Virus record (IMG/VR): IMGVR_UViG_3300032118_003132
Location: 6,874 to 70,873 of that record
Source: a virus
Direction: 5' to 3' (one strand)
DNA length: 64,000 bases
The notes under the pieces are model-generated. The model saw nothing but the letters and a program-made list of their open reading frames with translations, made no database searches and was not told where the DNA came from. Each line of letters begins with the position of its first letter. Within the stretch, counting starts at the first letter, position 1. The translations under genes were made by a program, and so were the position numbers. Shown piece after piece: positions 1,644-46,234 of this stretch.

Positions 1644-4037
1644 ATGAAAATTATTCTGTTGATTCTATCGATTTGTTTCCTTACATATCTATGGATTATA
1701 TCTACCGAGATTTATCAATATATTACTTGGATCTATACTGGTATGATAGGGAGTGCAATGTTTTATATTCACTCTAAATGGGTGAATGATTTTATAGATA
1801 GTTTACAGAGAGATTCACCATCTTGGTATTATGTGGAGAATGATATATGGTATTTCTAGATAAATATGAAACTATGATACAAGAACTGCGTAAGATAAAT
1901 ACTGAGTTGTTTGGAGAATCTTCCAAACCATCCTTTGCAGATAAAACCTTTACAATCATCTCATTAATTGCTTATACGATAGTCTGGTGGATACTGATGA
2001 TACCTATTGCAATTGTGGGAGGTATCTTTAAAGCTATTAGAGATTTAATAGATAAAATGATTGAGGTGTAATACGAGTATTAGACATTTGATGTCATTGT
2101 ATGAGTACCTTGCATATATGTTTGTCATACAAGTGGCAGACTTGTCTAATGATATAACTTATAATAAGGTCATTACTACTGATGACTTAACCGAGTTGTT
2201 GACGGACTTGAATACCAGTAAGCATATTTTACAGGGTACTGGTTATGCAGTTATATCTAATACACTTATACTCAATACGGACTCTAAAATATGAATGATA
2301 TAACTCACCAAATGTATGCAACAATACAGACTCCTACTAAGGAGGCTATGGAAAAGTGTCTCCGGGAAGTATATCATTTTGTAGTTACAGATGAGAATCA
2401 CGCAATAGAGACCACATTTGGCAATTGGGAAGGATGTTGGGAAGAGCACGATGGTCAGTTCTATGCTATGCTATTCAAAAGGGTGCAAGTTTAATATATT
2501 AGAAGGCTAAAATGAACCTAATGATATTTGTGTTAATTTTAATTATACTTATATTATTGATTACTATAGGTTTATTGAGATTTCGACAGCGAGAACTTAT
2601 TAATGAAATCCAAGTTCTAAAACAATGTCGTAGTGAATTGGAAAAAGATAATTGGGAAGAAATAAGTATATTCTTGACTGATAATAGAGAGGTCGGGAAA
2701 TGAAAGCCAAAGAGTATGCTCAGAGAATTACTCATAGTATACAGTTGCCTGGTACAGAATTCGATAAAGTAATATACTCTGTAATTCAGGATTTATTTGG
2801 AGAGATAGTTACTCTTGTTAAAATAAGACATTGTGGGTGTGACTCTGCCTATACTGCTGTATTCGATGAGATAGATAATAAATGGATAACTATCTGTCGA
2901 ATAGTAAATGAGCAATGCAATAATACTATTATTAGACCTATTGGCTTCCGAGAACTTGCATTTCACATAGCAGATAAAGCAGGTATGTGGCAGATGAGAA
3001 TGGCATGGAAACCCAAAAGGATATCTGTATGAGTACAACAATACCTATTATGTCTAATCCACTCCCTAAACATATCATACCACATCTAAGAATATATAAA
3101 CGTAGACATAAGGATGGTGGTTCTTTATATCTTGTTCTGATACAAGGTAGTATTGCATATAGCACCATAAGAGTTTGTATAAATTATGCAAAGAGCATTA
3201 AGGATTGGGATGCTGTAATGATTGGAAATCTTATGATGAGATTAAGTCATGAACAGAAGAGACAGGTTCTATTGAAACTTGGAGAATAAAATGCCAACAT
3301 TACCTTTAAGTTCAGAGGATATTGAGAAAGATAATATTGAGCATGTCAAACAGGCATATGCCGAACATCAGAGAGTACAGAACCTCCCTGCGGTGGAAGT
3401 AAAAATTATAGAAGATAATGTGAAATACACTATCACTATACAGATAGATGGAAATAAATTGATACTTAAACCTAATCAGGCTCTAGATTTATCTATAAAA
3501 TTACGACAAGCATGGAATAATTTGCGTGAGCATAATAAAAAGCAATTTAAGAAATATCATGGTAGAGCAAAAGGAGATAATAATGAAAAGGATAGAGATA
3601 ACAGTCAATGATAATACGAAACAGACTGATATAGATTATCTTGCAAATAAGATAACTGAACTGTTAGATGATCAGGGTATAACTGGAGTTATCTTAGTAC
3701 ATGTTGCAGAAGATAAAAAACTAAATGCACCCATCTATGGTAATGTCGCCAAATTTCCTCATGTTCCTCCTCCACCTTCCATTCTACCAGAAGGGAAATT
3801 CTAATGGAAAAGTATAATGTCACGATAATTCTCTACACGAGAGAAGGGGAAGTCATTGCCAAGTCTCAGGAGATGGATGAGGATAGACTAAAAGAACTGC
3901 GTGATAGTTTGGGTTATAAGTTGGTTAGTCCTAGTTATTATCTGGATCTGGATACTAACTCTGGCTTTATATTAGTTCCCCATGATATATTAATAAATTC
4001 AGTTATTGATGTTAAAGTAGAGAAAATTATATCATGA
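1644..4037 (+). other. Cluster of about 10 small hypothetical ORFs (1644-1859, 1847-2071, 2061-2294, 2291-2494, 2512-2703, 2700-3032, ~3029-3289, ~3291-3611, ~3583-3804, 3804-4037), several membrane-like
   Basis: Tightly packed, overlapping start/stop codons. No family recognised. Confidence 0.6.
2486..2497 (+). promoter_or_regulatory. CAAGTTTAATAT motif variant, copy 4
   Basis: One mismatch to the consensus. Overlaps the QV-stop of 2291-2494, upstream of ATG 2512. Confidence 0.5.
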
Positions 4038-4432
4038 CCTGGATAGAATCCCGTAAGACCGTCTGTGTGGACTTTGACGGTGTATTAAATGACTATCGAG
4101 GGTATGTTGAAGGGCATACATATCCACTAAATCAGACTGGAATTGAATTCCTTAGACAATTGAAAGAGATAGGTTTCAGAGTTGTTGTCTTATCTAGTGC
4201 CAGACTTGCGGATATAGAGAGAGCATTGCATGACGCATACTTAGATGATGTTGTAGATCAGATAACGAATGTCAAGGTGCCAGCAATAGCATATATTGAT
4301 GATAGAGCCATAACTTTCAGAGGAGATTTCCAAGAAACATTAAGAGAGTTGATGAATTTCAAGGCGTGGTGGGAGGACGAAAATCATGTAGAAACTCACG
4401 GATTCTCAGATAAATCATCTAAAAAGGAGTAA
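4034..4432 (+). CDS. HAD-superfamily phosphatase (possible 5'-nucleotidase)
   Basis: Motif I DFDGV, motif IV YIDDRA. Confidence 0.8.
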   Translation: MTWIESRKTVCVDFDGVLNDYRGYVEGHTYPLNQTGIEFLRQLKEIGFRVVVLSSARLADIERALHDAYLDDVVDQITNVKVPAIAYIDDRAITFRGDFQETLRELMNFKAWWEDENHVETHGFSDKSSKKE

Positions 4433-4435
4433 AAT

Positions 4436-5557
4436 ATGCCATTTCTTAACAGTTATGACTTTCAGACTGCATTTATTACATTGCTAGGAGAGTTGGTAGA
4501 GAATGGTCAGGACGTGGAGGTAAGAGGCAAGAAGACTAAAGAATTGCTCTCTTGCCATATCTCCATTGCTAATCCTCTACAACTCTGTTACTTTGTACCA
4601 TTCCGCAAGGATAATATCTTCGCACGCATAGCAGAGACATTGTGGGTTTTGCAAGGGAGGAATGATATAGAGTGGTTGAGTTATTATTTACCGAGGGCTA
4701 AAGATTATTCTGATGATGGCAATACCTGGAGGGCAGGATATGGTAAACGTCTGCGCAGGTGGCAATTAGATTCTGGTGATCCCATATTCGGTGGTAGTAT
4801 ATTAGATGAATACGACCAACTATCAGTGGCAATCAAAAAGTTGCAGATAAATCCATATACTCGTCAGGCAGTCATGTCCATATGGAGACCAGATGAGGAT
4901 AATAAATCTTCTCTAGATATCCCATGTAACAATTGGCTGCATTTCATCCTGCGAGACTTTGGTATTACCAGGTTTGCATTCTTGTTGGTGGCACAGCGGT
5001 CAGCCGATATCTTTTGGGGTTGGAGCAACATCAATGCCTTTGAGTGGTCTATACTTTTGCAGATGATGGCTTTCTGGACAAACTCTGAGGTTGGAAAAAT
5101 AGATTGGCTCGTGACCTCTATGCATATGTACGAGCACCATTATGAGACTGCTAATAAGATTCTGGAGACATATCCTAAAACATACAGTAGTTCTGATATA
5201 AACTTTGTGCCTCCAAAGTTCTCTACTGAGTTTGATTTACTAACCAGTAAACTGCAAAAATTGATGCAGGTCGAGACTATATTTAGGAATTCAGTTCCTG
5301 ATGATGTGCCGACTCATGAGTGGACAGGAGATGATTTGCTAGATACCTTCCTGCATATGCTCTTGATTTACATCAAGTTGCAGCAGAATTCCAGTACCTG
5401 GCTATTATCACATTTGCTTGGAGAGATGGATGAGTCTGAATATAAATATGCAGCGATGTTACATGTAGCAAGACAGAGAAAAGACCTGTTTACATGTATT
5501 CCAGAGAGTAATAAATACATTGATTTGGTAAAGTCTGTTATTTTGTCTGAGAATTAA
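4436..5557 (+). CDS. Thymidylate-synthase-family protein, probable dUMP hydroxymethylase
   Basis: YGxRLR, TRQAV, DIPCN catalytic Cys, QRSADIFWGWSNINAFEW with the dUMP-specifying Asn, SMHMY. Long C-terminal extension. 5hmdU-modifying genes occur elsewhere in the window. Confidence 0.8.
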   Translation: MPFLNSYDFQTAFITLLGELVENGQDVEVRGKKTKELLSCHISIANPLQLCYFVPFRKDNIFARIAETLWVLQGRNDIEWLSYYLPRAKDYSDDGNTWRAGYGKRLRRWQLDSGDPIFGGSILDEYDQLSVAIKKLQINPYTRQAVMSIWRPDEDNKSSLDIPCNNWLHFILRDFGITRFAFLLVAQRSADIFWGWSNINAFEWSILLQMMAFWTNSEVGKIDWLVTSMHMYEHHYETANKILETYPKTYSSSDINFVPPKFSTEFDLLTSKLQKLMQVETIFRNSVPDDVPTHEWTGDDLLDTFLHMLLIYIKLQQNSSTWLLSHLLGEMDESEYKYAAMLHVARQRKDLFTCIPESNKYIDLVKSVILSEN

Positions 5558-14781: not shown

Positions 14782-14793
14782 ATGATAATTGGA

Positions 14794-14818
14794 GTATATA
14801 TTGTTAGGAGTAGATATG
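14794..14818 (+). promoter_or_regulatory. Late-promoter/RBS motif GTATATATTnTTAGGAGTAnATATG, copy 1
   Basis: 23/25 identical to 53259-53283. Confidence 0.55.
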
Positions 14819-16246: not shown

Positions 16247-16248
16247 GC

Positions 16249-23974: not shown

Positions 23975-24010
23975 TAATAATGTATATCATATATAGGAGT
24001 AATTTACCTC

Positions 24011-24628
24011 ATGACAAAATGGCTTGAAACTGATACAAATATAGATATCGATATTTCAACAATGACTATAATTGGATCTTATATTGCTGATGAAGACAGT
24101 ATGATTATAGCACAGATATTTGCTTCTCAGGTGGCTGGGGCAGGTAATTATATATTCCACGCAGGATTGCAAATTGGTGGTATTGGATTGAATTATGCTA
24201 TGATTCCAAAGACAACTGCTGCTGCCGATGTTGGAGAAACTGCCATTGGAGCACAATCCTCCTTGATAGCCATGCGTAATGGAGATATATTGACCATTTA
24301 CATTGAAGGTTTGCCAGGAGATAATACTACACCAGATACAATTGTCCGATTCTTCAAACTTGCTAATTTATTTCCAGCAGGAGCAATTCCATTTACTTAT
24401 ATAGTTACAGATGATATAACTCATTTGCCAATTGATGGTGTTGATGTATGGTTTAGTACAGATAATCCTGCAATCAATATTGTTTGGAAAGGTAATACGG
24501 ATACTTTCGGTGTGGCTCGTGACGTATATGGAAATCTCCCTAATCTTGATGTAGGAGTTTATTTCGTCTGGCGACAAAAAACAAATTATTTATTTATTGA
24601 TCCCGATACGGAGGTAATATCACCATGA
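24011..24628 (+). CDS. Probable virion protein
   Basis: C-terminal PIDGVDVW...TDTFG prealbumin-like motif. RBS present. Confidence 0.5.
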   Translation: MTKWLETDTNIDIDISTMTIIGSYIADEDSMIIAQIFASQVAGAGNYIFHAGLQIGGIGLNYAMIPKTTAAADVGETAIGAQSSLIAMRNGDILTIYIEGLPGDNTTPDTIVRFFKLANLFPAGAIPFTYIVTDDITHLPIDGVDVWFSTDNPAINIVWKGNTDTFGVARDVYGNLPNLDVGVYFVWRQKTNYLFIDPDTEVISP

Positions 24629-25724: not shown

Positions 25725-26459
25725 ATGATATCTGGCGTATATTGTATTAAGAATGTGATAAGTAATAAAATGTATATTGGTTCTTCTTGTAATGTAGAAG
25801 ATAGAATCTATATGCATTTTTATGATTTAGAGAATGGAAATCATTTTAATCATCATTTGCAAAGTGCATATAATAAATATGGTGATGATACTTTCATAAC
25901 CATATTATTGAAGACCTGTAAAAGGAAGAATTTATTTTATTGGGAACAAGCATTCATAGATGATTATAATCCATCTTATAATATACGGAAAATAGTTGAA
26001 GGTCCAGGAAAGAATTCAGAAGAATCTAGACACAAAATGTCCTTGGCATTGAAATTGCGCAAAGAACGTCTTGGATATACGCATTCTCCAGAAACCAAAA
26101 GAAAGATATCTGAAACTTTGAAGGGTCGTATTTCTCAAATGAAAGGGAAGAAAATGTCTAAAGAATCTAGACATAGAATGTCTCTTTCTAAGATAGGTAA
26201 ACCCCCACCAAATAAAGGTAAGAAGATGTCTAAAGAATTTAGAGATAAAATATCGAAAGCTGGGATTGGTAGAATTCCATGGAATAAAGGTAAGAAAATG
26301 TCCGAAGAATTTAGGAAAAATGTATCAGAAGGTCATAAAGGTCATGTTCCTTGGAATAAAGGTAAAGTAGGATATAAAATATGTAAAATATCCGAAGAAA
26401 CTAAGAAGAAAATATCTAGGACATTGAGATATAGATATAGTATGATGCATTCAAATTAG
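25725..26459 (+). CDS. GIY-YIG homing endonuclease with NUMOD3 repeats
   Basis: GVYCI..YIGSS..R, HSPETKRKIS, PWNKGKK repeats. Confidence 0.9.
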   Translation: MISGVYCIKNVISNKMYIGSSCNVEDRIYMHFYDLENGNHFNHHLQSAYNKYGDDTFITILLKTCKRKNLFYWEQAFIDDYNPSYNIRKIVEGPGKNSEESRHKMSLALKLRKERLGYTHSPETKRKISETLKGRISQMKGKKMSKESRHRMSLSKIGKPPPNKGKKMSKEFRDKISKAGIGRIPWNKGKKMSEEFRKNVSEGHKGHVPWNKGKVGYKICKISEETKKKISRTLRYRYSMMHSN

Positions 26460-33146: not shown

Positions 33147-33731
33147 ATGCCAGGATTATTGCCTGATTGGAGAATAAAACAACTTGTTGAATTGCAGGGC
33201 ATGATATATCCGTTTATCGAAAAGCAGGAACAGTTAGGTGGGTTTGATGAATTTTCAGATAAAGTTATCTCATTTGGGTTATCATCCTATGGTTATGACA
33301 TGCGTGTGGCAGGTGAATTCAAGATATTCAATAATGCCAATTATGGGATCATAGATCCAAAAGATTTTATGGAAAGTGCCTCTGTAATAAAAAGTATGGG
33401 AATGCCTGTGGTTATACCTCCAAACTCATTTGCTCTGGCATGTTCTGTAGAATATTTCAAAATACCTCGCAATATTATGTGTTTATGCATAGGTAAAAGT
33501 ACATATGCCAGATGTGGGGTATTAGTGAACGTGACAGCATTTGAACCTGAATGGAAAGGTTATGTGACAATAGAGATTTCCAATACTACACCTTTACCTG
33601 TCAGGATATATCCATTTGAAGGTATAGCTCAGGTATTATTCTTTGAAGTTGAAAAAGAGTGTGCTGTATCTTATGCCGATAAGAAGGGTAAATATCAGGA
33701 TCAATATGGTATAACTCTTCCAATTGTATAG
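33147..33731 (+). CDS. dcd: dCTP deaminase
   Basis: [44 protein letters not shown]. Confidence 0.95.
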
Positions 33732-33973: not shown

Positions 33974-33977
33974 TTTG

Positions 33978-34646
33978 ATGAATAAGAGTGGTATTTATTG
34001 GATAAGAAATAAAATTAATAATCATATTTATATAGGATCATCTATAAATATGATTGGTAGGAAACATAAGCATTCTCGTTTGTTAAATAGGAAAGCACAT
34101 GAAAATAGTCATTTACAAAATGTGTATAATAAATATGGTCTCAAGAATTTTAGATTTAAAATATTAATAATCTGTGATCCAAATATGTTATTATTCTATG
34201 AGCAACAATTTTTGGATTATTTTCATCCTCAATATAATATATGTCCAACTGCTGGTAATAATGGAGGTCATAAATGTTCTGAAGAAACTAAAAGAAAAAT
34301 ATCTTTGGCACATATAGGATATAAATTCTCTAAAGATGCCAAGAAGAATATGTCTATTGCACAAATGGGACACAAACGAAAAGGATGGAAATTATCAAAA
34401 GAAACAAAAAAGAAAATATCTATTGCGCGTAAAGGGCATATGGTATCTGAAGAAACAAAAAAGAAAATATCAAAATCAAATGTTGGACAAAAACGTTCTG
34501 AAAATACCAAACATAAAATATCAGAATGTTTGATAGGTAATAAAAATAGTAAAGGACGTAAATGGTCTGATGAGGATAAACGTAAAATATCAGAACGTAT
34601 GAAAGGTAATAGGAATTGGGACAATGGATATAATGATTGGAAATAA
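33978..34646 (+). CDS. GIY-YIG homing endonuclease with NUMOD3 repeats, next to the tRNA
   Basis: GIYWI..YIGSS..R, SEETKRKIS repeats. Confidence 0.9.
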   Translation: MNKSGIYWIRNKINNHIYIGSSINMIGRKHKHSRLLNRKAHENSHLQNVYNKYGLKNFRFKILIICDPNMLLFYEQQFLDYFHPQYNICPTAGNNGGHKCSEETKRKISLAHIGYKFSKDAKKNMSIAQMGHKRKGWKLSKETKKKISIARKGHMVSEETKKKISKSNVGQKRSENTKHKISECLIGNKNSKGRKWSDEDKRKISERMKGNRNWDNGYNDWK

Positions 34647-37149: not shown

Positions 37150-37854
37150 ATGGTTATCAAAAGGCGTTTAATCCGTCGCAAGCCAGTTGAGGAAGAAGTC
37201 GAGGACGAAGAAGTAGAGGAAGTGGAAGACACCGAGGTGGAAGAGGATGAGGTGGATGTCGAGGAAGAAGATGAGGATTATGAGGAAGAGGGTGAGGAAG
37301 AAGAACCTCAACCTGTCAAGAAACTCGTATCTCGTGGCATCGCTCCGAGACCTGTTGCCAAACTCCCTATGGTTCAAGCCAAACCTGTTCCCAAACAACT
37401 GAAGTTGGAAAAGGTTGAGGAAGAAGTGGCACCTGCCAAGACAGTCAAGGTTATGAAAGTTGAAGAGACTGTGGTTGCCTCTGTCCTGATGGAAGCCATG
37501 AAGCAGTTGGCTGATGGAAAGGTTATGATCGTTACGAACCTGGGAAATGGCAAGTTCAGTATTGGTCATTCGGACAATCTTCCCACTGGTGCAACTAGTA
37601 AACTGCGTGGCAATGCTTACTATGATGCTGTGGTAAGTCCTGAGTACGAGAAGTGGTCTGCTGAATGGAAAACCAAGACCTACGAGGAGAAGGTGAGGTT
37701 TGCTCAGAAGAAGAAAATCACCTGGGATGAATATCCTAATCCTAAGGTGGACGTGATCCGTCTGACTGAAGCAGTTCGGACTGCACTAGGGATCGAGAAA
37801 TATCGTCCAGAATATCGGACGAGGGCATCTCGCGCAGCTCTTCGTGGTGGATAA
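37150..37854 (+). CDS. Protein with a highly acidic N-terminal tract
   Basis: Strong RBS, E/D run, followed by a terminator. Confidence 0.7.
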   Translation: MVIKRRLIRRKPVEEEVEDEEVEEVEDTEVEEDEVDVEEEDEDYEEEGEEEEPQPVKKLVSRGIAPRPVAKLPMVQAKPVPKQLKLEKVEEEVAPAKTVKVMKVEETVVASVLMEAMKQLADGKVMIVTNLGNGKFSIGHSDNLPTGATSKLRGNAYYDAVVSPEYEKWSAEWKTKTYEEKVRFAQKKKITWDEYPNPKVDVIRLTEAVRTALGIEKYRPEYRTRASRAALRGG

Positions 37855-37875
37855 ATAATTCAATATATGATCACA

Positions 37876-37910
37876 CTGGGAGACTCAAAAGGTCTCCCAG
37901 CAATTCTTTT
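37876..37910 (+). terminator. Intrinsic-terminator-like hairpin
   Basis: CTGGGAGAC/GTCTCCCAG stem, then CAATTCTTTT. Confidence 0.65.
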
Positions 37911-37923
37911 GGAGAGTGAAGAA

Positions 37924-39012
37924 ATGAATAAACAAGTAAGGGTTGCCATAATCGGTGTGGGTAACTGTTGTTCATCTCTGGTTCAGGGAGTGCAGTTCTA
38001 TCATAATATTAAAGAGGGTGCCGAGATTCCTGGATTAATGCATGTGAATTTAGGTGGTTATCATATCAATGATATAATGTTTACGGCAGCATTCGATGTT
38101 GTAGAGGGGAAGGTTGGTAAGGACTTATCGGAGGCTATTTTCGCCTATCCAAATAATACATATAAATTCTGTGATGTGCCATACTCTGGTGCATTGGTTT
38201 ATAGAGGAATGACTCTTGATGGTCTAGGAAAATATCTGTCTGAGATATTAAAGAAAGCTCCTGGTCCGACAGCTAATATTGTTGAAATCTTGAAAGAGAC
38301 CAAAACAGATGTTGTAATAAATTACTTGCCTGTTGGTTCTGAGGATGCTACTAGATGGTATGTTGAGCAGATATTAGAGGCAGGTTGTGCTATGATAAAT
38401 TGCATTCCTGTGTTTATTGCTAGTTCTAAGTATTGGGCAGACCGATTTTCCGAGAAAGGATTGCCTGTCATTGGAGATGATATCAAGAGTCAGGTAGGAG
38501 CCACCATAGTTCATAGGGTACTAACTACTCTGTTTGAGGATAGAGGAGTTTATCTGGATAGAACCTATCAATTGAACTTTGGGGGCAATACTGATTTCCT
38601 TAATATGTTGGAGCGCGAGCGTTTGGAATCTAAGAAGATTTCCAAAACCAATGCTGTGAAGAGTATGTTATCAAGGGAGATAGCTCCCGATGACATTCAT
38701 GTTGGTCCAAGTGATTATGTTCCCTGGCTCACAGATCGTAAGTTCTGTTATATCCGTATGGAGGGAACAACCTTTGGAAATGTTCCTCTAAACCTCGAGT
38801 TAAAGCTAGAGGTATGGGATTCTCCCAATTCAGCAGGAGTTGTCATTGATGCAGTCCGCTGTGCAAAGTTAGCTTTGGATAGAGGTCAATCTGGGTCATT
38901 GGCTCTGCCGTCAGCTTACTTTATGAAAAGCCCGAGCATACAGTTTGAGGATGGTTTGGCTAGGGACAGTCTTGAAGAGTGGATTCGCAATGGAAATGTA
39001 TCAACATCCTAG
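37924..39012 (+). CDS. ino1: myo-Inositol-1(3)-phosphate synthase
   Basis: [62 protein letters not shown]. Confidence 0.95.
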
Positions 39013-39649
39013 TGGTGTGTGGTTGAGGAAAGATACCCACGATAAGTATGTGGTAGGTCAGATATCACAATATAAACTGTTGGATATTACACCTGGATGT
39101 AGAGTGTTGGATATTGGTGGGCATATAGGTTTATTTTCCAGATATGCTGCTAATAGGGGTGCAGGTTATGTATTAGCCATTGAGCCTCATCCCGGTAATT
39201 GTGATATGTTTATGCTGAATCTAAAGAATTATGATTGTGTTGAGTTGATAGAGGCTGCTGTTGTTTCTAATAATTATAAACAGAAAACTATGAAATTATA
39301 TGAGAGCAACACAGATACCAGTGCACACTCACTCGTTCCTACCAGAGGACGTAATAAGATGGTTGTCAATACCATACATTTCGGTTATGCATTGGTTGAA
39401 GCACAACCTAGTGTTGTGAAGATTGACATTGAGGGTTATGAGTATGATTTGCAAGATGAGATTCTTGGATTATTTCCAAAGAATAATATTAAATCATTTG
39501 CCATAGAATTTCATCTAAATAGAAAAGACTGGCGACAGAAAGCCAGGGAATTTGTAAAACAAATAGAGAAGATTTATAAACCTGTACGGATTGCCAATAT
39601 TACTGAGAGAGCCTGGAACGCTACAGGGGTTTGGTGTATAAATGGGTAA
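38990..39649 (+). CDS. FkbM-family SAM methyltransferase
   Basis: [15 protein letters not shown]...N, KIDIEGYE. Confidence 0.85.
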
Positions 39650-39715
39650 CTTATTACCTAAACTCACTATAAAACGCTCCTGTCTCTTCCTGGAATACAA
39701 TGTAGAGGGTGGGAT

Positions 39716-40759
39716 ATGGCTCACAGGGATTTAAATACCGTCGACCATTTATCCACCGAACAGCACTGGGATAACTTTGCCGATTTCTGTTATTATGATA
39801 TGTTATCGGGTGGTCCAGACGCTCACCTAACTCTGGCAGGTTATATGAGTAAGGATTTGCCTTTGCGTGAGCGGTTATGGCATGCTGGGGTTTATGTTGG
39901 TGTATACAATGTTCCAACTGCTGAAATCATTTGGTCGACCTTCTCTCATAAGGATATGATGAAGATATCCCACAAGGATTTGACTTATTGGCTAACAGAG
40001 AATTGGAAAGGTATAACTACTCGCACCGAACGCAAGTGTGTGCGAGTGCCAGCCAATATGGCATTCTACTTTAAGAATTATGCTGAGTGGGTAGACTCAT
40101 ATCCTTGGAAATCTCTACAAGCATATACACCAGAGCAAAGATATGAGAACTTATGGGTAGAATCACAAAAGTCTGTGAAGTTCCTTGGCAGATATAGTGG
40201 CTTCAAGTTATTAGAATATTATACAAAATGGTGTGATATTCCCATTAAACTGCCAGATATAAGACCTATTGGAGGGTGGTCTCCTCGTAGTATGTTATCT
40301 ATTTTGTATCCAGATTATAAAGATATTTTATTAGGAGATGATTCACCAAAGAACATTGCTACAATAAATGATATATCTAATAATCTATTAGATTGGCTTA
40401 ATAGTCATAAGGGTACAAAGTGGATAAATGGCATGGACTTATATAAAATGGAGGTATTCCTATGCGACTATAAGCAGTGCTATTTTGGTAGAAGGCAATA
40501 CCCTGGCAGGTCTCAGGACTCTGAAATACAATATCATGAGAAAATATCAGCCTATTGGGACTATGACTTTGAGATGATAAGAGCCAGGAGCGAGATATTT
40601 CCAAATTGGACATTGGGGGAGAAGAATGGTTGGACTAATGTTAGGAAAGAGTTAGGGACGGTGTTATATGATTATGGTTACATGTGGTCGGACTCATTAT
40701 ATGATTATAAAAATACTCTGGACTTGTCGGTACCAACTCCGAAAGTGTGCAAGATATGA
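39716..40759 (+). CDS. Amino acid:DNA transferase family (aGPT-Pplase2-like, HhH fold)
   Basis: ERK, GRYSGFKLLEY, EVFLCDYK...YPG. Adjacent to the 5hmdU kinase genes. Confidence 0.7.
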   Translation: MAHRDLNTVDHLSTEQHWDNFADFCYYDMLSGGPDAHLTLAGYMSKDLPLRERLWHAGVYVGVYNVPTAEIIWSTFSHKDMMKISHKDLTYWLTENWKGITTRTERKCVRVPANMAFYFKNYAEWVDSYPWKSLQAYTPEQRYENLWVESQKSVKFLGRYSGFKLLEYYTKWCDIPIKLPDIRPIGGWSPRSMLSILYPDYKDILLGDDSPKNIATINDISNNLLDWLNSHKGTKWINGMDLYKMEVFLCDYKQCYFGRRQYPGRSQDSEIQYHEKISAYWDYDFEMIRARSEIFPNWTLGEKNGWTNVRKELGTVLYDYGYMWSDSLYDYKNTLDLSVPTPKVCKI

Positions 40760-41202
40760 AGTTCTATGCTATCTTACCTGATAATTTATATCAGAGAGGG
40801 GAATTCATCAAGGCAAGTTTAGATGAGAAACTAGCAGCATTGAAATCCATAGGAGCGGATGTGATAGTCAATGTTTGGACTCATGAGGATAAAGAGATTA
40901 TTCCCTACTTGGATGAGTACATTTATTACCCTATGACGGATGGAAATAACTTTGATCCTCTTGAATTGATAGATTTGGCAGAGTATGTTGCCGATGTGAT
41001 TTGGTCTGGGCACTGTGTTATTATACACTGTCATGCTGGCAGAAATCGTAGCAGTCTGGTAAGTGCTCTGGTGCTAAGAGAGTTATATGATATGACCGGA
41101 GAACAAGCTATGGATTGTGTCTGTGTTTGCAGACCTAATGCCTTTGGAAATAAATACTTTGCAGACTTCTTGAAAGGATTACCGAGACCGAATGATAATT
41201 AA
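40756..41202 (+). CDS. Dual-specificity/PTP-family phosphatase
   Basis: PMTDG acid loop, IHCHAGRNRS (CX5R). Confidence 0.9.
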   Translation: MKFYAILPDNLYQRGEFIKASLDEKLAALKSIGADVIVNVWTHEDKEIIPYLDEYIYYPMTDGNNFDPLELIDLAEYVADVIWSGHCVIIHCHAGRNRSSLVSALVLRELYDMTGEQAMDCVCVCRPNAFGNKYFADFLKGLPRPNDN

Positions 41203-41800
41203 TGTCAGAGGTACGTCAGGCTCAGGAAAAACATATACAGTTAGAAAGTTCATGGATTTCTATGGTCCAAGCACTATGATAAATGATAATGATGGAAAAC
41301 CTATTGCGCATGTTATATTTTATAATATGATGCCTGTATATTTCATAGGTTCCTATGCTAATGTATGTGGAGGATGTGATAATGTTCCTACTCAGGATAT
41401 GATATGTAGTCTAGTGAGACATTTTTCACAATTTGGTCATGTCATTTTCGAAGGTTTAATTATGAGTCATAGTTATGCTCGGTATGCTGCTTTGTGGAAA
41501 GAATTGACAGAACTATGTATACCATTTATATTTGCTTACATGGATACATCTCTTCAGGATTGTCTTGAAAGAGTTAAACAGCGCAGATTAGATAAAGGTA
41601 ACACGAAAGAATTCAATCCTCAGAACACTATCTCTGCTTATGATAGTATATGGGGAACTATGAAGAAATTTCAAGATGCTGGTGTAGATACGACCATAAT
41701 TAAGCATAAAAAAGATCCAATTATGCAGATCATAAATTTGCTGGATAAAGATAAAGAATTGCGATTCGACTATAGCTATAGAGAAGAGAAATTTCGATGA
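41192..41800 (+). CDS. P-loop kinase (probable kinase module of the 5hmdU DNA kinase, or a nucleotide kinase)
   Basis: RGTSGSGKT, G.Y...CGGCD, VIFEG, C..RV..RR. Confidence 0.75.
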   Translation: MIINVRGTSGSGKTYTVRKFMDFYGPSTMINDNDGKPIAHVIFYNMMPVYFIGSYANVCGGCDNVPTQDMICSLVRHFSQFGHVIFEGLIMSHSYARYAALWKELTELCIPFIFAYMDTSLQDCLERVKQRRLDKGNTKEFNPQNTISAYDSIWGTMKKFQDAGVDTTIIKHKKDPIMQIINLLDKDKELRFDYSYREEKFR

Positions 41801-42714
41801 AAAATATTTATATGGAACTTCTTCGATGGTTTTGGTATTATATAAGTGAGCGACATTCAATTTGGATAAGGCGAGATAGAGGAGATTCATTCCCATGGAC
41901 TGAGGATGAAATACTTTCTACATATAAATTCTGTAATGTATTTCGGGAATTGGACAAAGGCACAATCTGGTGCAGAAAAAATATCCGTGAGCCATATGCC
42001 AATCATCCCGAGTTATTCTTCAATATTGCTGCATATAGACTTTACAATCTGGTCTCCACAGCCACTGAGATAATGGAAAAAGTTGGCTTTATAGAGAAAC
42101 AGAGCCAATTAAATGATGTTGTGAAAGTGGTGCGTGCTAGAAGAGCAAGAGGGGAGCGGATATTCACTGGTGCACACATGATAACTGGCACATTGGGTGG
42201 AGATAAGATTCATCAGATATTCGAGATATGTTTGCCAAAGTTATGGCAGAATAGGCGACTACTGGAGCCTATTGATGGCAACACCTTGGAAATCGCATTC
42301 AATAGATTATGCAGTCACACACCTGGATATGGTCCGTTCACGAGTTATGAGGTTATCACAGATCTGAGGCATACCAGATATTTACAGAATGCCTCAGATA
42401 TAATGACCTGGGCTAATCCTGGTCCAGGAGCAAAGAGAGGAATTTGCAGACTGTTAGGATTACAGGTGAGAACTACGAATGGTGGAACTCCATCTTTGGA
42501 AATAAGACATCAATATCCAAAGAGAGAAGAATATATTGAATATATGAAATTTATCCTAAATATATCCGGAGTTTATCTAAATTCTTGGATTTCACCATTA
42601 GAAATGAGGGACGTGGAACATTCACTCTGCGAATGGGATAAGTATGAGAGAACAAGACTAGGTGAGGGTAGACCTCGCTCTAAATATGTCCCACCGCATT
42701 TGCGACAAGTTTAG
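41797..42714 (+). CDS. 5hmdU DNA kinase helical domain (aGPT-Pplase1 family)
   Basis: ERH.IW.RR..G...PWT.D.IL..YKFCNV.RE.D, G.GPF..YE...DL, GPGA.RG, EHSLCEWDKY.R. Confidence 0.88.
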   Translation: MKNIYMELLRWFWYYISERHSIWIRRDRGDSFPWTEDEILSTYKFCNVFRELDKGTIWCRKNIREPYANHPELFFNIAAYRLYNLVSTATEIMEKVGFIEKQSQLNDVVKVVRARRARGERIFTGAHMITGTLGGDKIHQIFEICLPKLWQNRRLLEPIDGNTLEIAFNRLCSHTPGYGPFTSYEVITDLRHTRYLQNASDIMTWANPGPGAKRGICRLLGLQVRTTNGGTPSLEIRHQYPKREEYIEYMKFILNISGVYLNSWISPLEMRDVEHSLCEWDKYERTRLGEGRPRSKYVPPHLRQV

Positions 42715-42717
42715 TAC
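42706..42717 (+). promoter_or_regulatory. CAAGTTTAGTAC motif, copy 6
   Basis: Overlaps a QV-stop, followed by AGGAG and ATG 42732. Confidence 0.55.
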
Positions 42718-42731
42718 ATCAGGAGAAATAA

Positions 42732-43007
42732 ATGGACGGAAAATTATCTATTGAAATACCTAAACAATATCTATTAATCATAGCAGTACATGGAAATATG
42801 GGAGATGGTGAATTACCAGATATAATGCGTATTTGGGCACAAAATGAATGCAGACGTTTAGGTATTGAAAAGCAACTTATTGAACTTCAGAATGACCATC
42901 TACGAGAATTAGAGAAACGTATGAGGAATGTATTAGGGGATGATGTAATGGATAAATTGACAACAAATATTAAAAAGGTTGCTAAAGCAATAAGTGATAC
43001 AAAATAG
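42732..43007 (+). CDS. Hypothetical protein
   Basis: RBS plus ORF. Confidence 0.55.
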   Translation: MDGKLSIEIPKQYLLIIAVHGNMGDGELPDIMRIWAQNECRRLGIEKQLIELQNDHLRELEKRMRNVLGDDVMDKLTTNIKKVAKAISDTK

Positions 43008-43018
43008 AAAATAAATTT

Positions 43019-43282
43019 ATGATTGGCAAACTAATATATTTTAGGAACATGGATAAGAAGGGATTATTAACTGAGGTGGTGGTCAATAAAATCATACATG
43101 ATTTTACAGTAAAAATGCATTATCCTCCAAAGGAGATTGTAGCCAGGAGAGAGGATGTTGGTGATGATATTATTGATATGGTTACTTCAGTGAATAAGGG
43201 GTTACAGTTAGGACATGTCCTTGTATATCCAATAATAAATAGAGAACCAATGCGATTTCAGGGAGAGAGGACGCCTGTATGA
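43019..43282 (+). CDS. Hypothetical protein
   Basis: ORF coupled to the next gene. Confidence 0.5.
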   Translation: MIGKLIYFRNMDKKGLLTEVVVNKIIHDFTVKMHYPPKEIVARREDVGDDIIDMVTSVNKGLQLGHVLVYPIINREPMRFQGERTPV

Positions 43283-43695
43283 ATAAAGTAGTTGTGACGA
43301 AAGAGGAATTTGAAAAAATACTTTTACAGGCTTGTAATATAAAAGATCTTGTAGATCTCATAAAGGAAATCACTGATTTGGTATATGATAAAAATCAGGA
43401 TTATGGTGATGCATGGCAGCGATATGGTATCTTCACTCCGCTCATCCGCATCAATGACAAAATCCTACGTATTGAGAAATTATCAGATGGACGTCATGCA
43501 CTTATAAATAATGAGAATATTGAAGATACCTTGAAAGATATTGTGGGTTATGCAGTGTTAGCTCTAATGTGGTTGCATAATATTAAATTACTATCGCAGT
43601 CTAAATTTCCCAATGATGATGATCCTAAAGAACTTGAAAAAGAATTTGATAATATGATTGAGCGATTACGATATCATGAACCCAGGAAAGAATAA
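43279..43695 (+). CDS. DUF1599 / nucleotide-modification-associated all-alpha protein
   Basis: KNQDYGDAW, DKILRI, EDTLKDIVGYA. Confidence 0.8.
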   Translation: MNKVVVTKEEFEKILLQACNIKDLVDLIKEITDLVYDKNQDYGDAWQRYGIFTPLIRINDKILRIEKLSDGRHALINNENIEDTLKDIVGYAVLALMWLHNIKLLSQSKFPNDDDPKELEKEFDNMIERLRYHEPRKE

Positions 43696-46234
43696 TCCTA
43701 TTTGTAGAGAATGTAAACTCTGGGAGAACTGTTCCTCACCATTTATGAAGCCAGATGGTTCCTCATCATTTATCACGAAAGCTCTTGTTATAGGTGAGGC
43801 TCCAGGTGAGGAAGAGGATTTAGTTGGTAAACCATTCGTTGGTAGGTCTGGAACATTATTGCGCACCGCTATTGATGGTATAGGTTTATCTAAGGATGAT
43901 GTTGTATATACTAACATAGTACGGTGCAGACCTTCAAATAATAAGATTTCCAAGGTAGCAATAAATTTCTGTAAAGCGTTTGCTATTCAGGATATCGAAG
44001 AATATAAGCCAAAATTCGTTCTCCTTATGGGAAATAGTCCCTTGGAAGGTATATTAGGGGAGACAGGCATAACAAATTGGAATGGAATAATTATAAAGAA
44101 AAATGGTAGAAAATATTTGCCTTTATATCATCCTGCATATATACTTAGGAATCCAGGTGCAACGGATGATTGGTTGACTGGATTCCTGTCTATGGAAGAT
44201 AGTGATGTATCTTCTAGCGAATATAAATTGGTTGTACCTAGAAATCTTAAAGAAGTCAAGGATATGCAGGATGAATTGGTGCTTTATAATTATATTGCCT
44301 ATGATACTGAGGTAATATCTCTCAATCCTTTCTCTGTTGGTAGCATCCTGTTAGCAGTTTCCTTTGCTGTTCCAGATAAAAAATTTGCTGTTCCTATTGA
44401 CCATAAAGATAGTTGGTTTAAAGGAAATGGAAATGTTAAAGATATAATCATAAATATATTGAAGACTCATGATAATGCTATCATTGGGCATAATCTGAAA
44501 TTCGATCAGATGCAGTCTGTTAAACATCTAGGAGTGAAGTTTAGTGGTTGTGCTGATACAATGCTAATTAGTCATATGCTTGATAGCCGGCAAGGGATAC
44601 ATGGTCTGAAGAGATTGGCTGGCGTATATTGTGGGATGTATGGTTATGATAGAGAGTTGGAGGCATATAAATTATCTCATCCTGAGGCTAATCCTGATAA
44701 GGGTGGTAACTATGGAGAGATACCTTTGGAAATATTATTGCCTTATGCTGCCAATGATGTCGAGGCAACCACCAAATTGTATTTAGCATTATACAATAAA
44801 TTGACGATTAAACAGAAATATATACATGAAGAGATGATTATGAAGTTCAGTGATATGCTATGTCAGGTGCAATGTAATGGTGTGGTATTAGACTCTGATA
44901 TGGCACATTGGTATAAGGCACTTTATAATACTTTTCATGATGATATGTATCAAGGACTTCTAAGCAATAAATATGTAACCAAATTATGGGTAAATCATAA
45001 GGATAAGAAGGGTTATATATTCAATCCTAACTCATCCGTGCAACTCTCGGAATTATACTTTGATATTTGTAAGATACCTGTGGTAGAATATACTCCAACA
45101 GGGAAACGCTCTACAAAAGCAGAACTCTTCAAGATTATGGAAGACAAATTTCCAATATTATATCAGGTTAGGCAATATAAATTATTAGGGAAAATGTTAT
45201 CTACTTATCTTAATCCTGCCACAGATGGTTCTTGGTTATCTAATGATGGTAGAGTGCGGTCAACATATAATCTACATGGAACAAAGACTAGTCGTATATC
45301 TAGTAGTAATCCAAACCTTCAGAATATTCCAACTCCAGAGAAGGAACCTGGAACTTTATTGGAATATAAACCTATAAAGAATGTCTTCACGCATTCCTAT
45401 ATAAACCATGCAGCAAAAGGTTATGTAGATAGGTATTGTGATGGAGTAACGCTATCGGCAGATTATTCTGGTGCAGAATTGCGAGTATTTGCCAGTCTTT
45501 CTAGATGTAAACCTATGATAGATATACATAAAAGTGGTAAGGATTTCCATTCTTGTATTGCTATTATGACTATGGAAGGTAAATACCCGAGTGAGATAAC
45601 TATGGAGGATATCAAGGCTCTTCCAAAGGCTGTGAGATATATCTATAAGTGGACAAACTGGACTCTCTTATATGGTGGTGGTATTGGTACTCTTATCTCT
45701 ATGTATAATATTAAAGAGGATAAAGCCAAAGAGGCAGTTAAGAAATATTATGAATTGTTTCCAGAAGTATTAGAATATCGTGAGGAATGTATAGATTTTG
45801 CTACGACTCATGGTTATATTGAGAGTCCATTTGGTAGGATAGAGAATCTTCCTGATATAAATAGTCAGGATATGAAGAGGCACAATAAGGCTGTCAGAGA
45901 GGCTATAAATATGCCAACACAGTCGGGTGCCTCAGATCTGACTTTATGTTCTGCCCATATTGTTTCTAAGAAAATACAAGAATATAAAGATTTAAGGTCT
46001 AAAATAATAAATACGGTGCATGATAGTATAGTTCTAGATGTTCCTAAGAATGAAATATATTCTATTGCTCATATATGCACTGATGCGATGGAAAATATAA
46101 AAACTTTGGGTAAAGTACATTTTCCTCATATTGATTTTGATTGGTTAATCTGCCCTCTTAAGGCGAATATAGAAATCGGGACGCATTATGGCTCCGAAAT
46201 AGGTTTGAAAGAATGGGTTAGTCTCTATGGATGA
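43676..46234 (+). CDS. polA: Family A DNA polymerase with N-terminal family-4 UDG-like domain and 3'-5' exonuclease
   Basis: GEAPG..E...G.PFVG.SG, CRP, YHPAY; DTE, HNLKFD, YAANDV; SSSNPNLQNIP, ADYSGAELR, VHDS. Confidence 0.93.
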   Translation: MNPGKNNPICRECKLWENCSSPFMKPDGSSSFITKALVIGEAPGEEEDLVGKPFVGRSGTLLRTAIDGIGLSKDDVVYTNIVRCRPSNNKISKVAINFCKAFAIQDIEEYKPKFVLLMGNSPLEGILGETGITNWNGIIIKKNGRKYLPLYHPAYILRNPGATDDWLTGFLSMEDSDVSSSEYKLVVPRNLKEVKDMQDELVLYNYIAYDTEVISLNPFSVGSILLAVSFAVPDKKFAVPIDHKDSWFKGNGNVKDIIINILKTHDNAIIGHNLKFDQMQSVKHLGVKFSGCADTMLISHMLDSRQGIHGLKRLAGVYCGMYGYDRELEAYKLSHPEANPDKGGNYGEIPLEILLPYAANDVEATTKLYLALYNKLTIKQKYIHEEMIMKFSDMLCQVQCNGVVLDSDMAHWYKALYNTFHDDMYQGLLSNKYVTKLWVNHKDKKGYIFNPNSSVQLSELYFDICKIPVVEYTPTGKRSTKAELFKIMEDKFPILYQVRQYKLLGKMLSTYLNPATDGSWLSNDGRVRSTYNLHGTKTSRISSSNPNLQNIPTPEKEPGTLLEYKPIKNVFTHSYINHAAKGYVDRYCDGVTLSADYSGAELRVFASLSRCKPMIDIHKSGKDFHSCIAIMTMEGKYPSEITMEDIKALPKAVRYIYKWTNWTLLYGGGIGTLISMYNIKEDKAKEAVKKYYELFPEVLEYREECIDFATTHGYIESPFGRIENLPDINSQDMKRHNKAVREAINMPTQSGASDLTLCSAHIVSKKIQEYKDLRSKIINTVHDSIVLDVPKNEIYSIAHICTDAMENIKTLGKVHFPHIDFDWLICPLKANIEIGTHYGSEIGLKEWVSLYG

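Follow-up and report, generated by a model that had tools for sequence, protein, structure and literature searches.

Why would a virus keep an inositol-3-phosphate synthase gene (Ino1) among enzymes that decorate thymine in DNA? The question is raised by a 64,000-nt stretch of DNA from an uncultured phage (IMG/VR record IMGVR_UViG_3300032118_003132, positions 6,874 to 70,873; hereafter the window), in which Ino1, a methyltransferase and a small phosphatase lie within such an enzyme set, a combination that points to an inositol-type DNA base. The favoured reading, held at a probability of roughly 60%, is that 5hmdU in DNA is phosphorylated and the phosphate then swapped for a group derived from inositol and probably O-methylated. 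This reading builds on the families and folds of the proteins, on catalytic residues that are conserved, on the order and fusions of the genes and on conservation of the neighbourhood.

Organization of the operon

The operon consists of six co-oriented genes that overlap for the most part and occupy positions 37924–42714 of the plus strand (Table 1). Profile and ORF evidence located all six where the original prediction had placed them, and its identification of each gene proved right. Both ATGA overlaps that it described were borne out by the ORF coordinates, the transferase stopping at 40759 with an in-frame phosphatase ATG at 40756, and the kinase ending at 41800 with the HMUDK_hel ATG at 41797. 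The longest Ino1 ORF spans 37867–39012; the start at ATG 37924 is backed by a Shine-Dalgarno sequence (GGAGAG) 8 nt upstream and also by the 10-bp hairpin and T-tract at 37876–37900. The FkbM ORF (38945–39649) opens at TTG 38945, and its start is most likely ATG 38990, giving a 23-nt overlap with Ino1. The full ORF of the phosphatase is 40747–41202.

Table 1. Features of the operon and of supporting loci in the window
Feature	Coordinates	Strand	Evidence
Small HAD-like protein, directly 5' of the TS homologue	4034..4432	+	Weak: PF00702 E 7.7e-4, below cut-off
Divergent thymidylate-synthase (TS)-family protein	4436..5557	+	PF00303 E 1.4e-26
dCTP deaminase, would supply dUMP/dUTP	33147..33731	+	PF22769 E 1.9e-31
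Terminator-like hairpin	37876..37900	+	10-bp stem, 6 GC pairs, then CAATTCTTTT
Ino1, inositol-3-phosphate synthase homologue	37924..39012	+	362 aa from ATG 37924; PF01658 E 6.9e-38
FkbM-family SAM methyltransferase	38990..39649	+	PF05050 E 4.8e-11
ADDT / aGPT-Pplase2-like DNA transferase	39716..40759	+	PF18724 34.3 bits, cut-off 26.2
Minimal Cys-based dual-specificity phosphatase (DSP)	40756..41202	+	148 aa, HCHAGRNRS; PF00782 34.2 bits, cut-off 33.5
P-loop kinase, 5-hmdU DNA kinase family	41192..41800	+	Walker A GTSGSGKT; PF18748 E 2.2e-4, below cut-off
HMUDK_hel / aGPT-Pplase1-type helical protein	41797..42714	+	PF18723 E 3.3e-51
DUF1599 'nucleotide modification associated domain 1' protein	43279..43695	+	PF07659 E 1.8e-11
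UDG-exonuclease-PolA fusion DNA polymerase	43658..46234	+	PF03167, PF01612, PF00476

The operon had also been described as lying between a terminator and a promoter motif. The terminator half of this claim stands, with the hairpin and T-tract situated between an upstream acidic-protein gene and Ino1, although the hairpin is weak taken alone because terminator-like sites across the region (5) did not exceed those in shuffled sequences (3.8 ± 1.8). The promoter half does not, as scanning for sigma-70 sites turned up nothing promoter-like where the operon ends (~42700–42730); region-wide, such sites were likewise not in excess (32 versus 26.7 ± 5.4 in shuffles). Given that the next ORF begins only 17 nt after HMUDK_hel, the transcription unit probably continues into the DUF1599 and UDG-PolA genes.

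Candidate enzymes for making and activating 5hmdU

The proposed link to 5-HMUDK/ADDT thymidine hypermodification was supported by tests of family, fold and catalytic Cys. The transferase belongs to the ADDT family, as had been predicted, scoring above the family cut-off, and its profile (A1) matched PDB entry 25qc_A, 'Amino acid:DNA transferase domain' (E 9.4e-6). In this alignment the Cys of an LC(D/E)Y motif falls on the catalytic Cys of PUGT, Cys247 (PMC11472151), and all 24 sequences compared have the equivalent Cys250. The predicted model (pLDDT 91.1) was closest to PaMx11 gp46/PUGT (8z2n_B; Z 16.4, rmsd 3.1 Å over 237 residues), the runner-up reaching Z 9.6. A C-terminal extension of ~50 residues is conserved and specific to the clade, which was not found in any cultured phage of the collection searched. 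Residues G10, G12 and K13 of the kinase are invariant, and 19 of 24 kinase orthologues matched PF18748 (best E 4.9e-12). The HMUDK_hel match covers positions 3–277 of the 281 in the PF18723 profile.

Genes that could provide the 5hmdU lie elsewhere in the window. The TS homologue falls far under every NCBIfam TS equivalog cut-off (77.9 versus 327), and its best PDB match is the CMP hydroxymethylase MilA (66.5 bits; best TS, 61.3 bits). Where MilA carries the Asp that specifies cytosine, the TS homologue, of the uracil type, has Asn. It is a candidate dUMP hydroxymethylase that would supply 5hmdU. The dCTP deaminase scored 147.3 bits against TIGR02274 (cut-off 92.8). UDG-PolA fusions are known from phages with T-hypermodified genomes (PMC13697223), and the DUF1599 gene is conserved 3' of the operon in five relatives (L002, L003, L005, L022 and L039).

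Conservation of Ino1 beside the transferase

Among 43 related viral loci retrieved with the transferase, at identities down to ~28–30%, Ino1 was present in 27, absent from the fetched flanks in 11 and not judgeable in 5. Where present, it usually lies directly upstream of the transferase, and in several loci the frames abut or overlap (e.g. L005, L015, L016, L018, L020 and L055). A survey from the Ino1 side covered the 80 best viral Ino1 loci with up to 8 kb of flank fetched on each side. Of the 27 loci at least 50% identical to the window Ino1, 20 had the transferase and the DSP in these flanks, mostly in the order Ino1-transferase-DSP and directly downstream, compared with just 1 among the 53 less similar loci. 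The expectation that ino1 is conserved next to the transferase in relatives thus held for 27 of 43 loci and failed within the fetched flanks of 11, two of which are whole genomes with terminal repeats.

These exceptions speak for a different reading, which we consider unlikely, that thymidine is hypermodified with a non-inositol group such as a host amino acid, polyamine, sugar phosphate or glycerol phosphate, and that Ino1 is an AMG in an early/replication operon. PF01658 was not found in any of five whole Ino1-less records tested. Two of them end in direct terminal repeats (one of 82 kb and 100% complete, the other of 54.6 kb), and these still carry orthologues of the radical SAM, transferase, DSP, kinase and TS genes, which makes Ino1 an accessory to a conserved core rather than a core member. 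In a transferase tree built by a quick method, loci with and without Ino1 are intermingled, well-supported branches forcing at least three changes, so that no correspondence between transferase specificity and Ino1 is visible. In addition, the transferase is missing from the fetched flanks of 59 of the 80 Ino1 loci surveyed, and in Stenotrophomonas phage Mendera Ino1 has GTP cyclohydrolase I on one side and a QueE-like gene on the other. Against this stands the position of Ino1, which in most of the clade's deep branches directly precedes the transferase, often in overlapping frames. As originally noted, moreover, neither the six operon proteins nor the three flanking genes scanned, namely a 234-aa upstream gene (37150–37854), DUF1599 and UDG-PolA, included a PLP enzyme (such as a decarboxylase), a radical SAM enzyme or an acetyltransferase.

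The genes that occupy the slot between Ino1 and the transferase also count against a non-inositol group. Two unrelated methyltransferase families take the same slot, an FkbM enzyme in the window, L004, L006 and L022 (in the window scoring 62.7 bits against TIGR01444, cut-off 37.7) and a non-homologous class-I methyltransferase in L002 and L003, the closest relatives of the window. Elsewhere the slot holds SDR and Gfo/Idh/MocA dehydrogenases (L008), a HAD phosphatase (L011 and L012) or a radical SAM/SPASM enzyme that, among solved structures, is by far closest to the cyclitol dehydrogenase BtrN (E 4.9e-13; next NifB, 3e-4). L093 combines a Gfo/Idh/MocA dehydrogenase, a methyltransferase and a DegT aminotransferase, and among the five top solved relatives of the last, three act as glutamine:scyllo-inositol or 2-deoxy-scyllo-inosose aminotransferases. 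Neither these DegT matches nor those of the Gfo/Idh/MocA enzymes clearly tell cyclitol from sugar-nucleotide enzymes. Judged by their families, the slot genes fit polyol or cyclitol-type tailoring; the BtrN-like, Gfo/Idh/MocA and inosose-type aminotransferase genes, together with glycosyltransferases, suit such chemistry and not amino-acid tailoring.

The phosphatase and the proposed pathway

The original prediction assigned the CX5R phosphatase to inositol phosphate. Its family is that of the DSPs, with C92 and R98 invariant in 24 of 24 orthologues, and its model (pLDDT 97.1) has a DUSP fold (TM ~0.77), of a generic kind that offers no clue to the substrate. The assigned role is uncertain, as the DSP is retained in Ino1-less genomes and, in L011 and L012, stands alongside the separate HAD phosphatase; it may act on something other than inositol phosphate. 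A second alternative, less probable than a non-inositol group, builds on this: the adduct is inositol-derived and keeps its phosphate, as an inositol-phosphate ether or as a phosphodiester formed via a phosphate nucleophile, while the DSP would clear unreacted 5-phosphomethyl-dU or trim a pyrophosphate on DNA. The DSP is the most constant neighbour of the transferase (42 of 43 loci), to which it is fused in L009 (a single 625-aa ORF), and it is fused to the P-loop kinase in L006 (a single 354-aa ORF). The extra HAD phosphatase could leave it free for another task, and PMC8989533 reports intermediates with pyrophosphorylated 5hmdU in PhiW-14 and SP10. A phosphatase undoing the work of its fused kinase would nevertheless seem futile unless site-selective.

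It is very improbable that the Ino1 homologue has an altered function and that another cyclitol or sugar phosphate is attached, such as the five-membered cyclitol phosphate that Ari2 makes: the five-membered-cyclitol-phosphate synthase 6k96 is the second-best solved relative (198.8 bits) and the TIGR03450 score (509.7 bits, E 4e-153) lies under the equivalog cut-off of 638, yet M. tuberculosis Ino1 (1GR0) is far closer, at 481 bits over its full length (residues 17–373), collinear across 357 residues with long identical motifs (e.g. 25- and 11-letter stretches), as befits a near-canonical MIPS.

In the inositol-based pathway, the dCTP deaminase and the TS homologue, with its putative hydroxymethylase activity, would yield 5hmdUMP, and the UDG-PolA polymerase would bring 5hmdU into DNA. 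The P-loop kinase and its HMUDK_hel partner would then phosphorylate the 5-hydroxymethyl group in DNA. Attack of transferase Cys250 at C6 would expel the phosphate, and an inositol-type hydroxyl, the presumed nucleophile, derived by Ino1 from glucose-6-phosphate, would add to the exocyclic methylene, leaving a cyclitol ether-linked to the thymine C5-methyl. The DSP would take off a phosphate at some step, and the FkbM enzyme would O-methylate the cyclitol, before or after the DSP acts. No inositol-bearing DNA base was found in the literature searched, and an inositol-type (cyclitol) base is not known to have been demonstrated by chemical means.

Among known systems, the window transferase resembles PaMx11 gp46/PUGT in the fold of its model and in its catalytic Cys. 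The characterised M6, ViI and PaMx11 systems have no known requirement for a phosphatase, a word that PMC8989533 uses once, in a methods context, and this weighs against a DSP acting on DNA phosphates.

Layout and enzyme assignments of the operon

Six genes lie head to tail on the plus strand within the operon, and family models recovered each of those named in the original prediction: Ino1, an FkbM methyltransferase, an ADDT-like transferase, a CX5R dual-specificity phosphatase (DSP), a P-loop kinase and HMUDK_hel. The two predicted ATGA overlaps agree with the ORF coordinates. Of the terminator and promoter predicted to bracket the operon, a 10-bp terminator-like hairpin with a T-tract is present at the upstream end and, together with a GGAGAG box, supports the assigned Ino1 start; a promoter at the downstream end was not confirmed. 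The FkbM gene probably starts within the 3' end of Ino1. The ORF following HMUDK_hel begins 17 nt downstream, and the transcription unit probably also takes in a DUF1599 ('nucleotide modification associated') gene and, after it, the gene for a UDG-exonuclease-PolA fusion polymerase. A separate observation, made from the sequence alone, records a dispersed CAAGTTTAGTAT motif.

The transferase matches PF18724 at 34.3 bits against a cut-off of 26.2 which, with its PUGT fold and aligned catalytic Cys, bears out the predicted ADDT membership. Within the motif LC[D/E]Y, C250 is invariant in an alignment of 24 transferase orthologues (24/24), and a search with the profile of this alignment retrieved 25qc_A (E 9.4e-6), a solved chain annotated 'Amino acid:DNA transferase domain', where the Cys of LCKW aligns with C250. 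An AlphaFold model generated from the same alignment (pLDDT 91.1) superimposed on PUGT (8z2n_B) with a Z-score of 16.4 and an rmsd of 3.1 Å over 237 residues, the next matches being helix-hairpin-helix glycosylases at Z of at most 9.6. Foldseek alone gave this match at an E-value of just 0.02, and it was resolved by the second structural alignment. According to PMC11472151, PaMx11 gp46/PUGT uses Cys247 as its catalytic nucleophile; attack of this residue at C6 displaces the phosphate from 5-phosphomethyl-dU (5-PmdU).

The best Pfam match of the P-loop kinase is PF18748, the 5-hmdU DNA kinase family, at an E-value of 2.2e-4 that falls under the cut-off. This family is matched by 19 of 24 kinase orthologues (best 4.9e-12) with an invariant Walker A motif, and it is through these orthologues that the kinase can be assigned to it. 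HMUDK_hel matches PF18723 (aGPT-Pplase1) over almost the whole profile length (E 3.3e-51). The putative source of 5hmdU, a divergent thymidylate-synthase-family protein (TS homologue), has a uracil-type Asn where MilA has a cytosine-specifying Asp; it is marginally nearer the hydroxymethylase MilA than TS and under every TS equivalog cut-off, in a range where the tools do not separate hydroxymethylase from methylase. The dCTP deaminase encoded in the window scores above its equivalog cut-off. UDG-PolA fusions are tied to phages with T-hypermodified DNA in PMC13697223. Taken together, the transferase fold and catalytic Cys, the kinase family, the dCTP deaminase, the TS homologue and the UDG-PolA fusion make thymidine hypermodification through 5-PmdU a well-supported reading of the operon, with a probability of roughly 0.9.

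Ino1 aligned with Mycobacterium tuberculosis Ino1 (1GR0) at 481 bits, residues 17-373 against 9-365, collinear over 357 residues with long motifs identical, and the next solved relative, a five-membered-cyclitol-phosphate synthase, scored 198.8 bits. It matches PF01658 (E 6.9e-38) and TIGR03450 at 509.7 bits, under the equivalog cut-off of 638, and is judged by homology to be a near-canonical inositol-3-phosphate synthase homologue. Curated models place the adjacent gene in the FkbM methyltransferase family, with both TIGR01444 (62.7 bits against 37.7) and PF05050 (43.5 against 22.7) over cut-off. PLP, radical-SAM-isomerase, FAD-lyase and acetyltransferase families were absent among the six operon proteins and the three flanking genes scanned, as had been predicted for PLP decarboxylase, radical SAM and acetyltransferase genes; in place of the tailoring of an amino-acid or polyamine donor seen in 5-HMUDK/ADDT systems (Lee et al. 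2018, 2021), the operon carries Ino1, FkbM and DSP.

Positions of features in the window and in related viral sequences
Feature	Sequence	Positions
Six-gene operon, plus strand	window	37924-42714
Hairpin with T-tract	window	37876-37900
Ino1 start (ATG)	window	37924
FkbM start (ATG), probable	window	38990
Transferase	window	39716-40759
DSP	window	40756-41202
ATGA overlaps	window	40756 and 41797
HMUDK_hel gene end (...CAAGTTTAGTAC), immediately 5' of the next ribosome-binding site	window	42700-42731
TS homologue	window	4436-5557
dCTP deaminase	window	33147-33731
Large-protein regions of the PHROGs scan	window	5788-7770, 14789-17769, 22460-25722, 60201-62834
Glycosyltransferases and Methyltransf_24 protein, structural-gene region	window	18668-20377, 20298-21629, 13361-13978
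GIY-YIG/NUMOD3 homing-endonuclease genes	window	7692-8360, 25725-26459, 33975-34646
Tet/JBP dioxygenase gene	L099	5947-6966
C5 cytosine DNA methylase and AAA-like protein	L007	12024-14173
HMUDK_hel homologue, ORF120	RP13, LC554890.1	4924-5898
Ino1 homologue, ORF125	RP13, LC554890.1	9001-10281
Ino1 neighbourhood	Stenotrophomonas phage Mendera, MN098328.1	8092-13618

The IMG/VR record is 70.9 kb in total, of which the window is the larger part. A tape-measure gene identifies a tailed phage, and T4-like replication genes (gp32, a UvsW-like helicase, RecA/UvsX, DnaB and primase) are present in the window. The first 6.9 kb of the record are also phage, with a 1133-aa protein and a terminase-like ORF and without tRNA, and the record's 'provirus' label pointed to no host. 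A nucleotide search with 37800-42800 against 50,697 phage records gave zero matches, and seven of ten large window proteins scanned against PHROGs had no match at E 1e-5. When an alignment of eight transferases was used as a pattern to scan species-representative genome contigs, 25 stretches matched and none encodes a relative, giving no prophage or host lead. The phage seems to be a member of a poorly sampled lineage. The structural-gene region of the window also encodes a double glycosyltransferase (GT2 and GT1-like domains), a second GT2 protein and a Methyltransf_24 protein, and three homing-endonuclease genes are dispersed through the window.

Conservation of the neighbourhood in related viruses

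Searching from the Ino1 side returned 206 viral stretches that encode a relative, the best 80 of which were examined. Within these 80, transferase and DSP were found in the fetched flanks of 20 of the 27 loci whose Ino1 is at least 50% identical to that of the window, mostly in the order Ino1-transferase-DSP; the kinase and the TS homologue usually come next. The 53 more distant loci among the same best 80, with Ino1 at 39-46% identity (L029-L084; L-numbers denote the related viral loci compared), form a second type of Ino1 neighbourhood, having an FkbM-like gene just downstream in 23 and a TS-family gene a few kb upstream in 28; an ADDT-like transferase is found in only one of the 53 and a DSP in none.

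Pooling the Ino1-side and transferase-side searches gave 43 loci apart from the window, including near-identical copies (L091/L097, L102-L104, L098/L101 and L106/L107). The DSP adjoins the transferase in 42 of these, the exception being the long-branch outlier L061. Co-occurrence of ino1 and ADDT, put forward as a check in the original prediction, was seen in 27 of the 43 loci; Ino1 was absent from the fetched flanks of 11, and in five a contig end prevents judgement. One of these five, L089, was so placed given that the radical SAM gene at its contig start is 88% identical to that of L010, in which Ino1 directly precedes the radical SAM gene. Gene order is maintained down to ~28-30% transferase identity to the window, and the Ino1 and transferase frames overlap or abut in several loci.

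PF01658 was missing from all five whole records of Ino1-less loci, which include terminal-repeat genomes of 82 kb (100% complete) and 54.6 kb. The radical SAM genes of the 82-kb genome and of L014, which does have Ino1, share 74% identity. In a transferase tree built by a quick method, Ino1-less rows fall in among those with Ino1, and the well-supported branches cannot be reconciled with fewer than three changes. Ino1 is an accessory gene of the module. Either the host provides the Ino1-less phages with the same donor, Ino1 then being a supply gene for some hosts only, or something other than inositol is the donor.

Between Ino1 and the transferase, or adjoining the pair, is a slot whose gene content differs from relative to relative. 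An FkbM methyltransferase occupies it in the window, L004, L006 and L022, and a class-I methyltransferase unrelated to FkbM does so in L002 and L003, the closest relatives of the window. Because two non-homologous methyltransferases share the slot within the window's own subclade, we argue from gene content that methylation of the Ino1-derived moiety may be under selection. Other occupants are an SDR with a Gfo/Idh/MocA dehydrogenase (L008), a HAD phosphatase (L011, L012), glycosyltransferases (TET-associated in L061, AGT-like in L089) and a radical SAM/SPASM enzyme (L010, L014, the Ino1-less L091, L094 and L103, and L089, in which Ino1 cannot be judged). The best solved relative of the radical SAM family profile is BtrN (E 4.9e-13), followed by NifB (3e-4); BtrN oxidises a cyclitol hydroxyl during butirosin synthesis. 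A Gfo/Idh/MocA dehydrogenase, a methyltransferase and a DegT aminotransferase lie directly 3' of the DSP in L093. The best NCBIfam match of this dehydrogenase is iolG, far under cut-off, and for the Gfo/Idh/MocA proteins of L008 and L093 alike, PDB and NCBIfam do not separate inositol from sugar or sugar-nucleotide dehydrogenases. The top five solved relatives of the aminotransferase include one glutamine:scyllo-inositol transaminase and two 2-deoxy-scyllo-inosose aminotransferases, at scores near those of sugar aminotransferases. By family assignment the variable genes appear to be polyol-, cyclitol- or sugar-type enzymes, and none appears to be an amino-acid tailoring enzyme.

Further genes were observed around the module. 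A 377-aa gene 5' of the L089 transferase, considered as a diverged Ino1, was ruled out, since in the protein atlas it falls among AGT-like and GT4 glycosyltransferases. In the Ino1-less relative L099, the gene directly 5' of the transferase-DSP pair encodes a Tet/JBP dioxygenase, an arrangement which suggests that 5hmU is made there by thymine oxidation in DNA, not by a TS-family hydroxymethylase. Four relatives (L007, L008, L011 and L012) have conserved genes for a C5 cytosine DNA methylase and an AAA-like protein in the interval separating the kinase from the TS homologue, and L007 carries a homing-endonuclease gene related to the GIY-YIG/NUMOD3 set of the window between Ino1 and the transferase.

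The phosphatase and the proposed product

The DSP is a 148-aa protein that barely exceeds the PF00782 cut-off and contains the CX5R P-loop HCHAGRNRS, with C92 and R98 invariant in 24 of 24 orthologues. Its model (pLDDT 97.1) has a TM-score of ~0.77 to DUSP10 and DUSP8; the top Foldseek rows are protein-type DUSPs and PTPMT1 appears at rank 45, the fold being a generic DUSP fold with which the search does not discriminate protein, lipid, glucan and inositol-phosphate substrates. Scores against the PTP-like-phytase family PF14566 were 18.8 bits in the window and 17.7 bits in L009 (cut-off 27). The transferase and DSP are fused in one 625-aa ORF in L009, as are the DSP and P-loop kinase in one 354-aa ORF in L006, and these two natural fusions appear to tie the phosphatase into the modification machinery. 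A predicted transferase-DSP complex scored 0.00 in a run that had no controls and speaks neither for nor against binding. Free inositol phosphate, DNA-tethered inositol phosphate or unreacted 5-PmdU could each be the substrate, since the DSP follows the transferase rather than Ino1 and a HAD phosphatase co-exists with it in L011 and L012. The constant pairing with the transferase and the fusions point to a processing step by a Cys-phosphatase, within DNA hypermodification or alongside it, for which described pathways offer no equivalent.

A scheme was assembled on the basis of homology, fold, conserved residues and gene context, from which we infer the donor, linkage, order of steps and product. 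5hmdU would be incorporated into DNA and converted to 5-PmdU by the kinase and HMUDK_hel. Cys250 of the transferase would then add at C6 and the phosphate would leave, and the inositol(-phosphate) that Ino1 produces would add to the methylene through one of its hydroxyls. The DSP would take off a phosphate and FkbM would O-methylate the product. An inositol-derived adduct is the outcome we lean towards. The fully specified product, an O-methyl-inositol ether on the thymine C5-methyl, is put forward tentatively. With similar reserve, at somewhat under even odds, this ether would be the first cyclitol-bearing nucleobase and the wider phage family would bear keto-, epi- and amino-cyclitol (aminoglycoside-like) DNA decorations, some glycosylated further, where relatives combine the transferase-phosphatase-kinase core with BtrN-like, Gfo/Idh/MocA and inosose-aminotransferase genes.

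To our knowledge, all characterised thymidine hypermodifications via 5-PmdU append an amino acid or a polyamine. A cyclitol, if confirmed, would add a new chemical class to the natural DNA bases, couple the glucose-6-P to inositol-P step of primary sugar metabolism with chemistry carried out on DNA after replication, and extend the substrate range of ADDT transferases to bulky polyol hydroxyls. Such a range would be relevant to restriction and glycosylase evasion, enzymatic DNA labelling and poorly sequencing viral diversity, and six small genes together with DNA containing 5hmdU would suffice for a direct test of the prediction. In the literature searched, no inositol- or cyclitol-bearing DNA base is described and the sole co-mentions are names of glycosyltransferase structural matches. 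The word 'inositol' occurs in the main text of neither PMC8989533 (Lee et al. 2021), whose supplements list metagenomic co-associations and may bear on novelty, nor PMC13697223.

Relation to known systems

The transferase clade has no cultured member in the collection of 50,697 phage records, where the seven matches, at 25-28% identity, are to Gordonia and Microbacterium phages. Ino1 is found in cultured phages of the Stenotrophomonas Mendera group, Caulobacter Cr30 and Ralstonia RP13. In RP13 (L085), a cultured phage reported to be hypermodified, an HMUDK_hel homologue (tblastn E 4e-11) lies 3 kb upstream of the Ino1 homologue, and no ADDT, DSP or P-loop kinase was found within 9 kb on either side of this Ino1 at E 1e-2. 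In the cultured Menderavirus phages (L086, Stenotrophomonas phage Mendera), the Ino1 homologue (44.6% identity) has GTP cyclohydrolase I on one side and a QueE-like gene on the other, a neighbourhood whose gene content indicates 7-deazaguanine-type DNA modification, not thymidine modification.

PMC13697223 describes SP-15, YerA41, Carin-5 and RP13 as T-hypermodified phages with a UDG-fused PolA containing three large insertions. The fusion polymerase adjoins thymine-modification genes there, as in the window (858 aa); the modifications of that group are described as glycosylated linkers, not cyclitols. Among bacterial inositol and aminocyclitol pathways (M. tuberculosis Ino1, butirosin BtrN/BtrR, scyllo-inosose aminotransferases), the window Ino1 is near the mycobacterial enzyme, and relatives of the operon add BtrN-like radical SAM enzymes, Gfo/Idh/MocA dehydrogenases and a DegT aminotransferase nearest to cyclitol aminotransferases. 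However, the bacterial pathways yield free metabolites or antibiotics, whereas the phage genes sit inside an operon for DNA modification, and of such genes the window carries only Ino1 and a methyltransferase.

The PaMx11 system is described, in PMC11472151 and PMC8989533, as the N-alpha-GlyT, 5-NmdU and 5-AcNmdU pathway, and its gp46/PUGT with 5-HMUDK (PDB 8Z2M/8Z2N) has the fold, Pfam family and catalytic Cys in common with the window transferase. Both systems include a P-loop partner of the 5-hmdU DNA kinase family, and 5hmdU would derive from a TS-family enzyme. However, the two transferases are just 12-13% identical, and the last ~50 residues of the window protein, conserved in its clade, are without counterpart in PUGT. 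In place of the FAD lyase and acetyltransferase, the window carries Ino1, a methyltransferase and a Cys-phosphatase, and the nucleophile is probably a polyol hydroxyl as opposed to the glycine amine of PaMx11.

In Salmonella phage ViI, the product is oxygen-linked via the C5-methylene and serine is attached through its hydroxyl; because of this, ViI is by analogy the closest precedent, in chemical terms, for ether formation with a hydroxyl donor. Its 5-NeOmdU pathway comprises 5-HMUDK paralogues, aGPT-Pplase paralogues and a PLP enzyme (PMC5889632, PMC8989533), and the kinase with paired aGPT-Pplase-type proteins resembles HMUDK_hel and the ADDT-like transferase of the window. Unlike ViI, the window has no PLP decarboxylase; the donor would be a cyclitol from a phage-encoded synthase, with a phosphatase and a methyltransferase for its tailoring or processing. 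Relative to the literature, the kinase-transferase logic is known, whereas the proposed donor class and the phosphatase partner are new.
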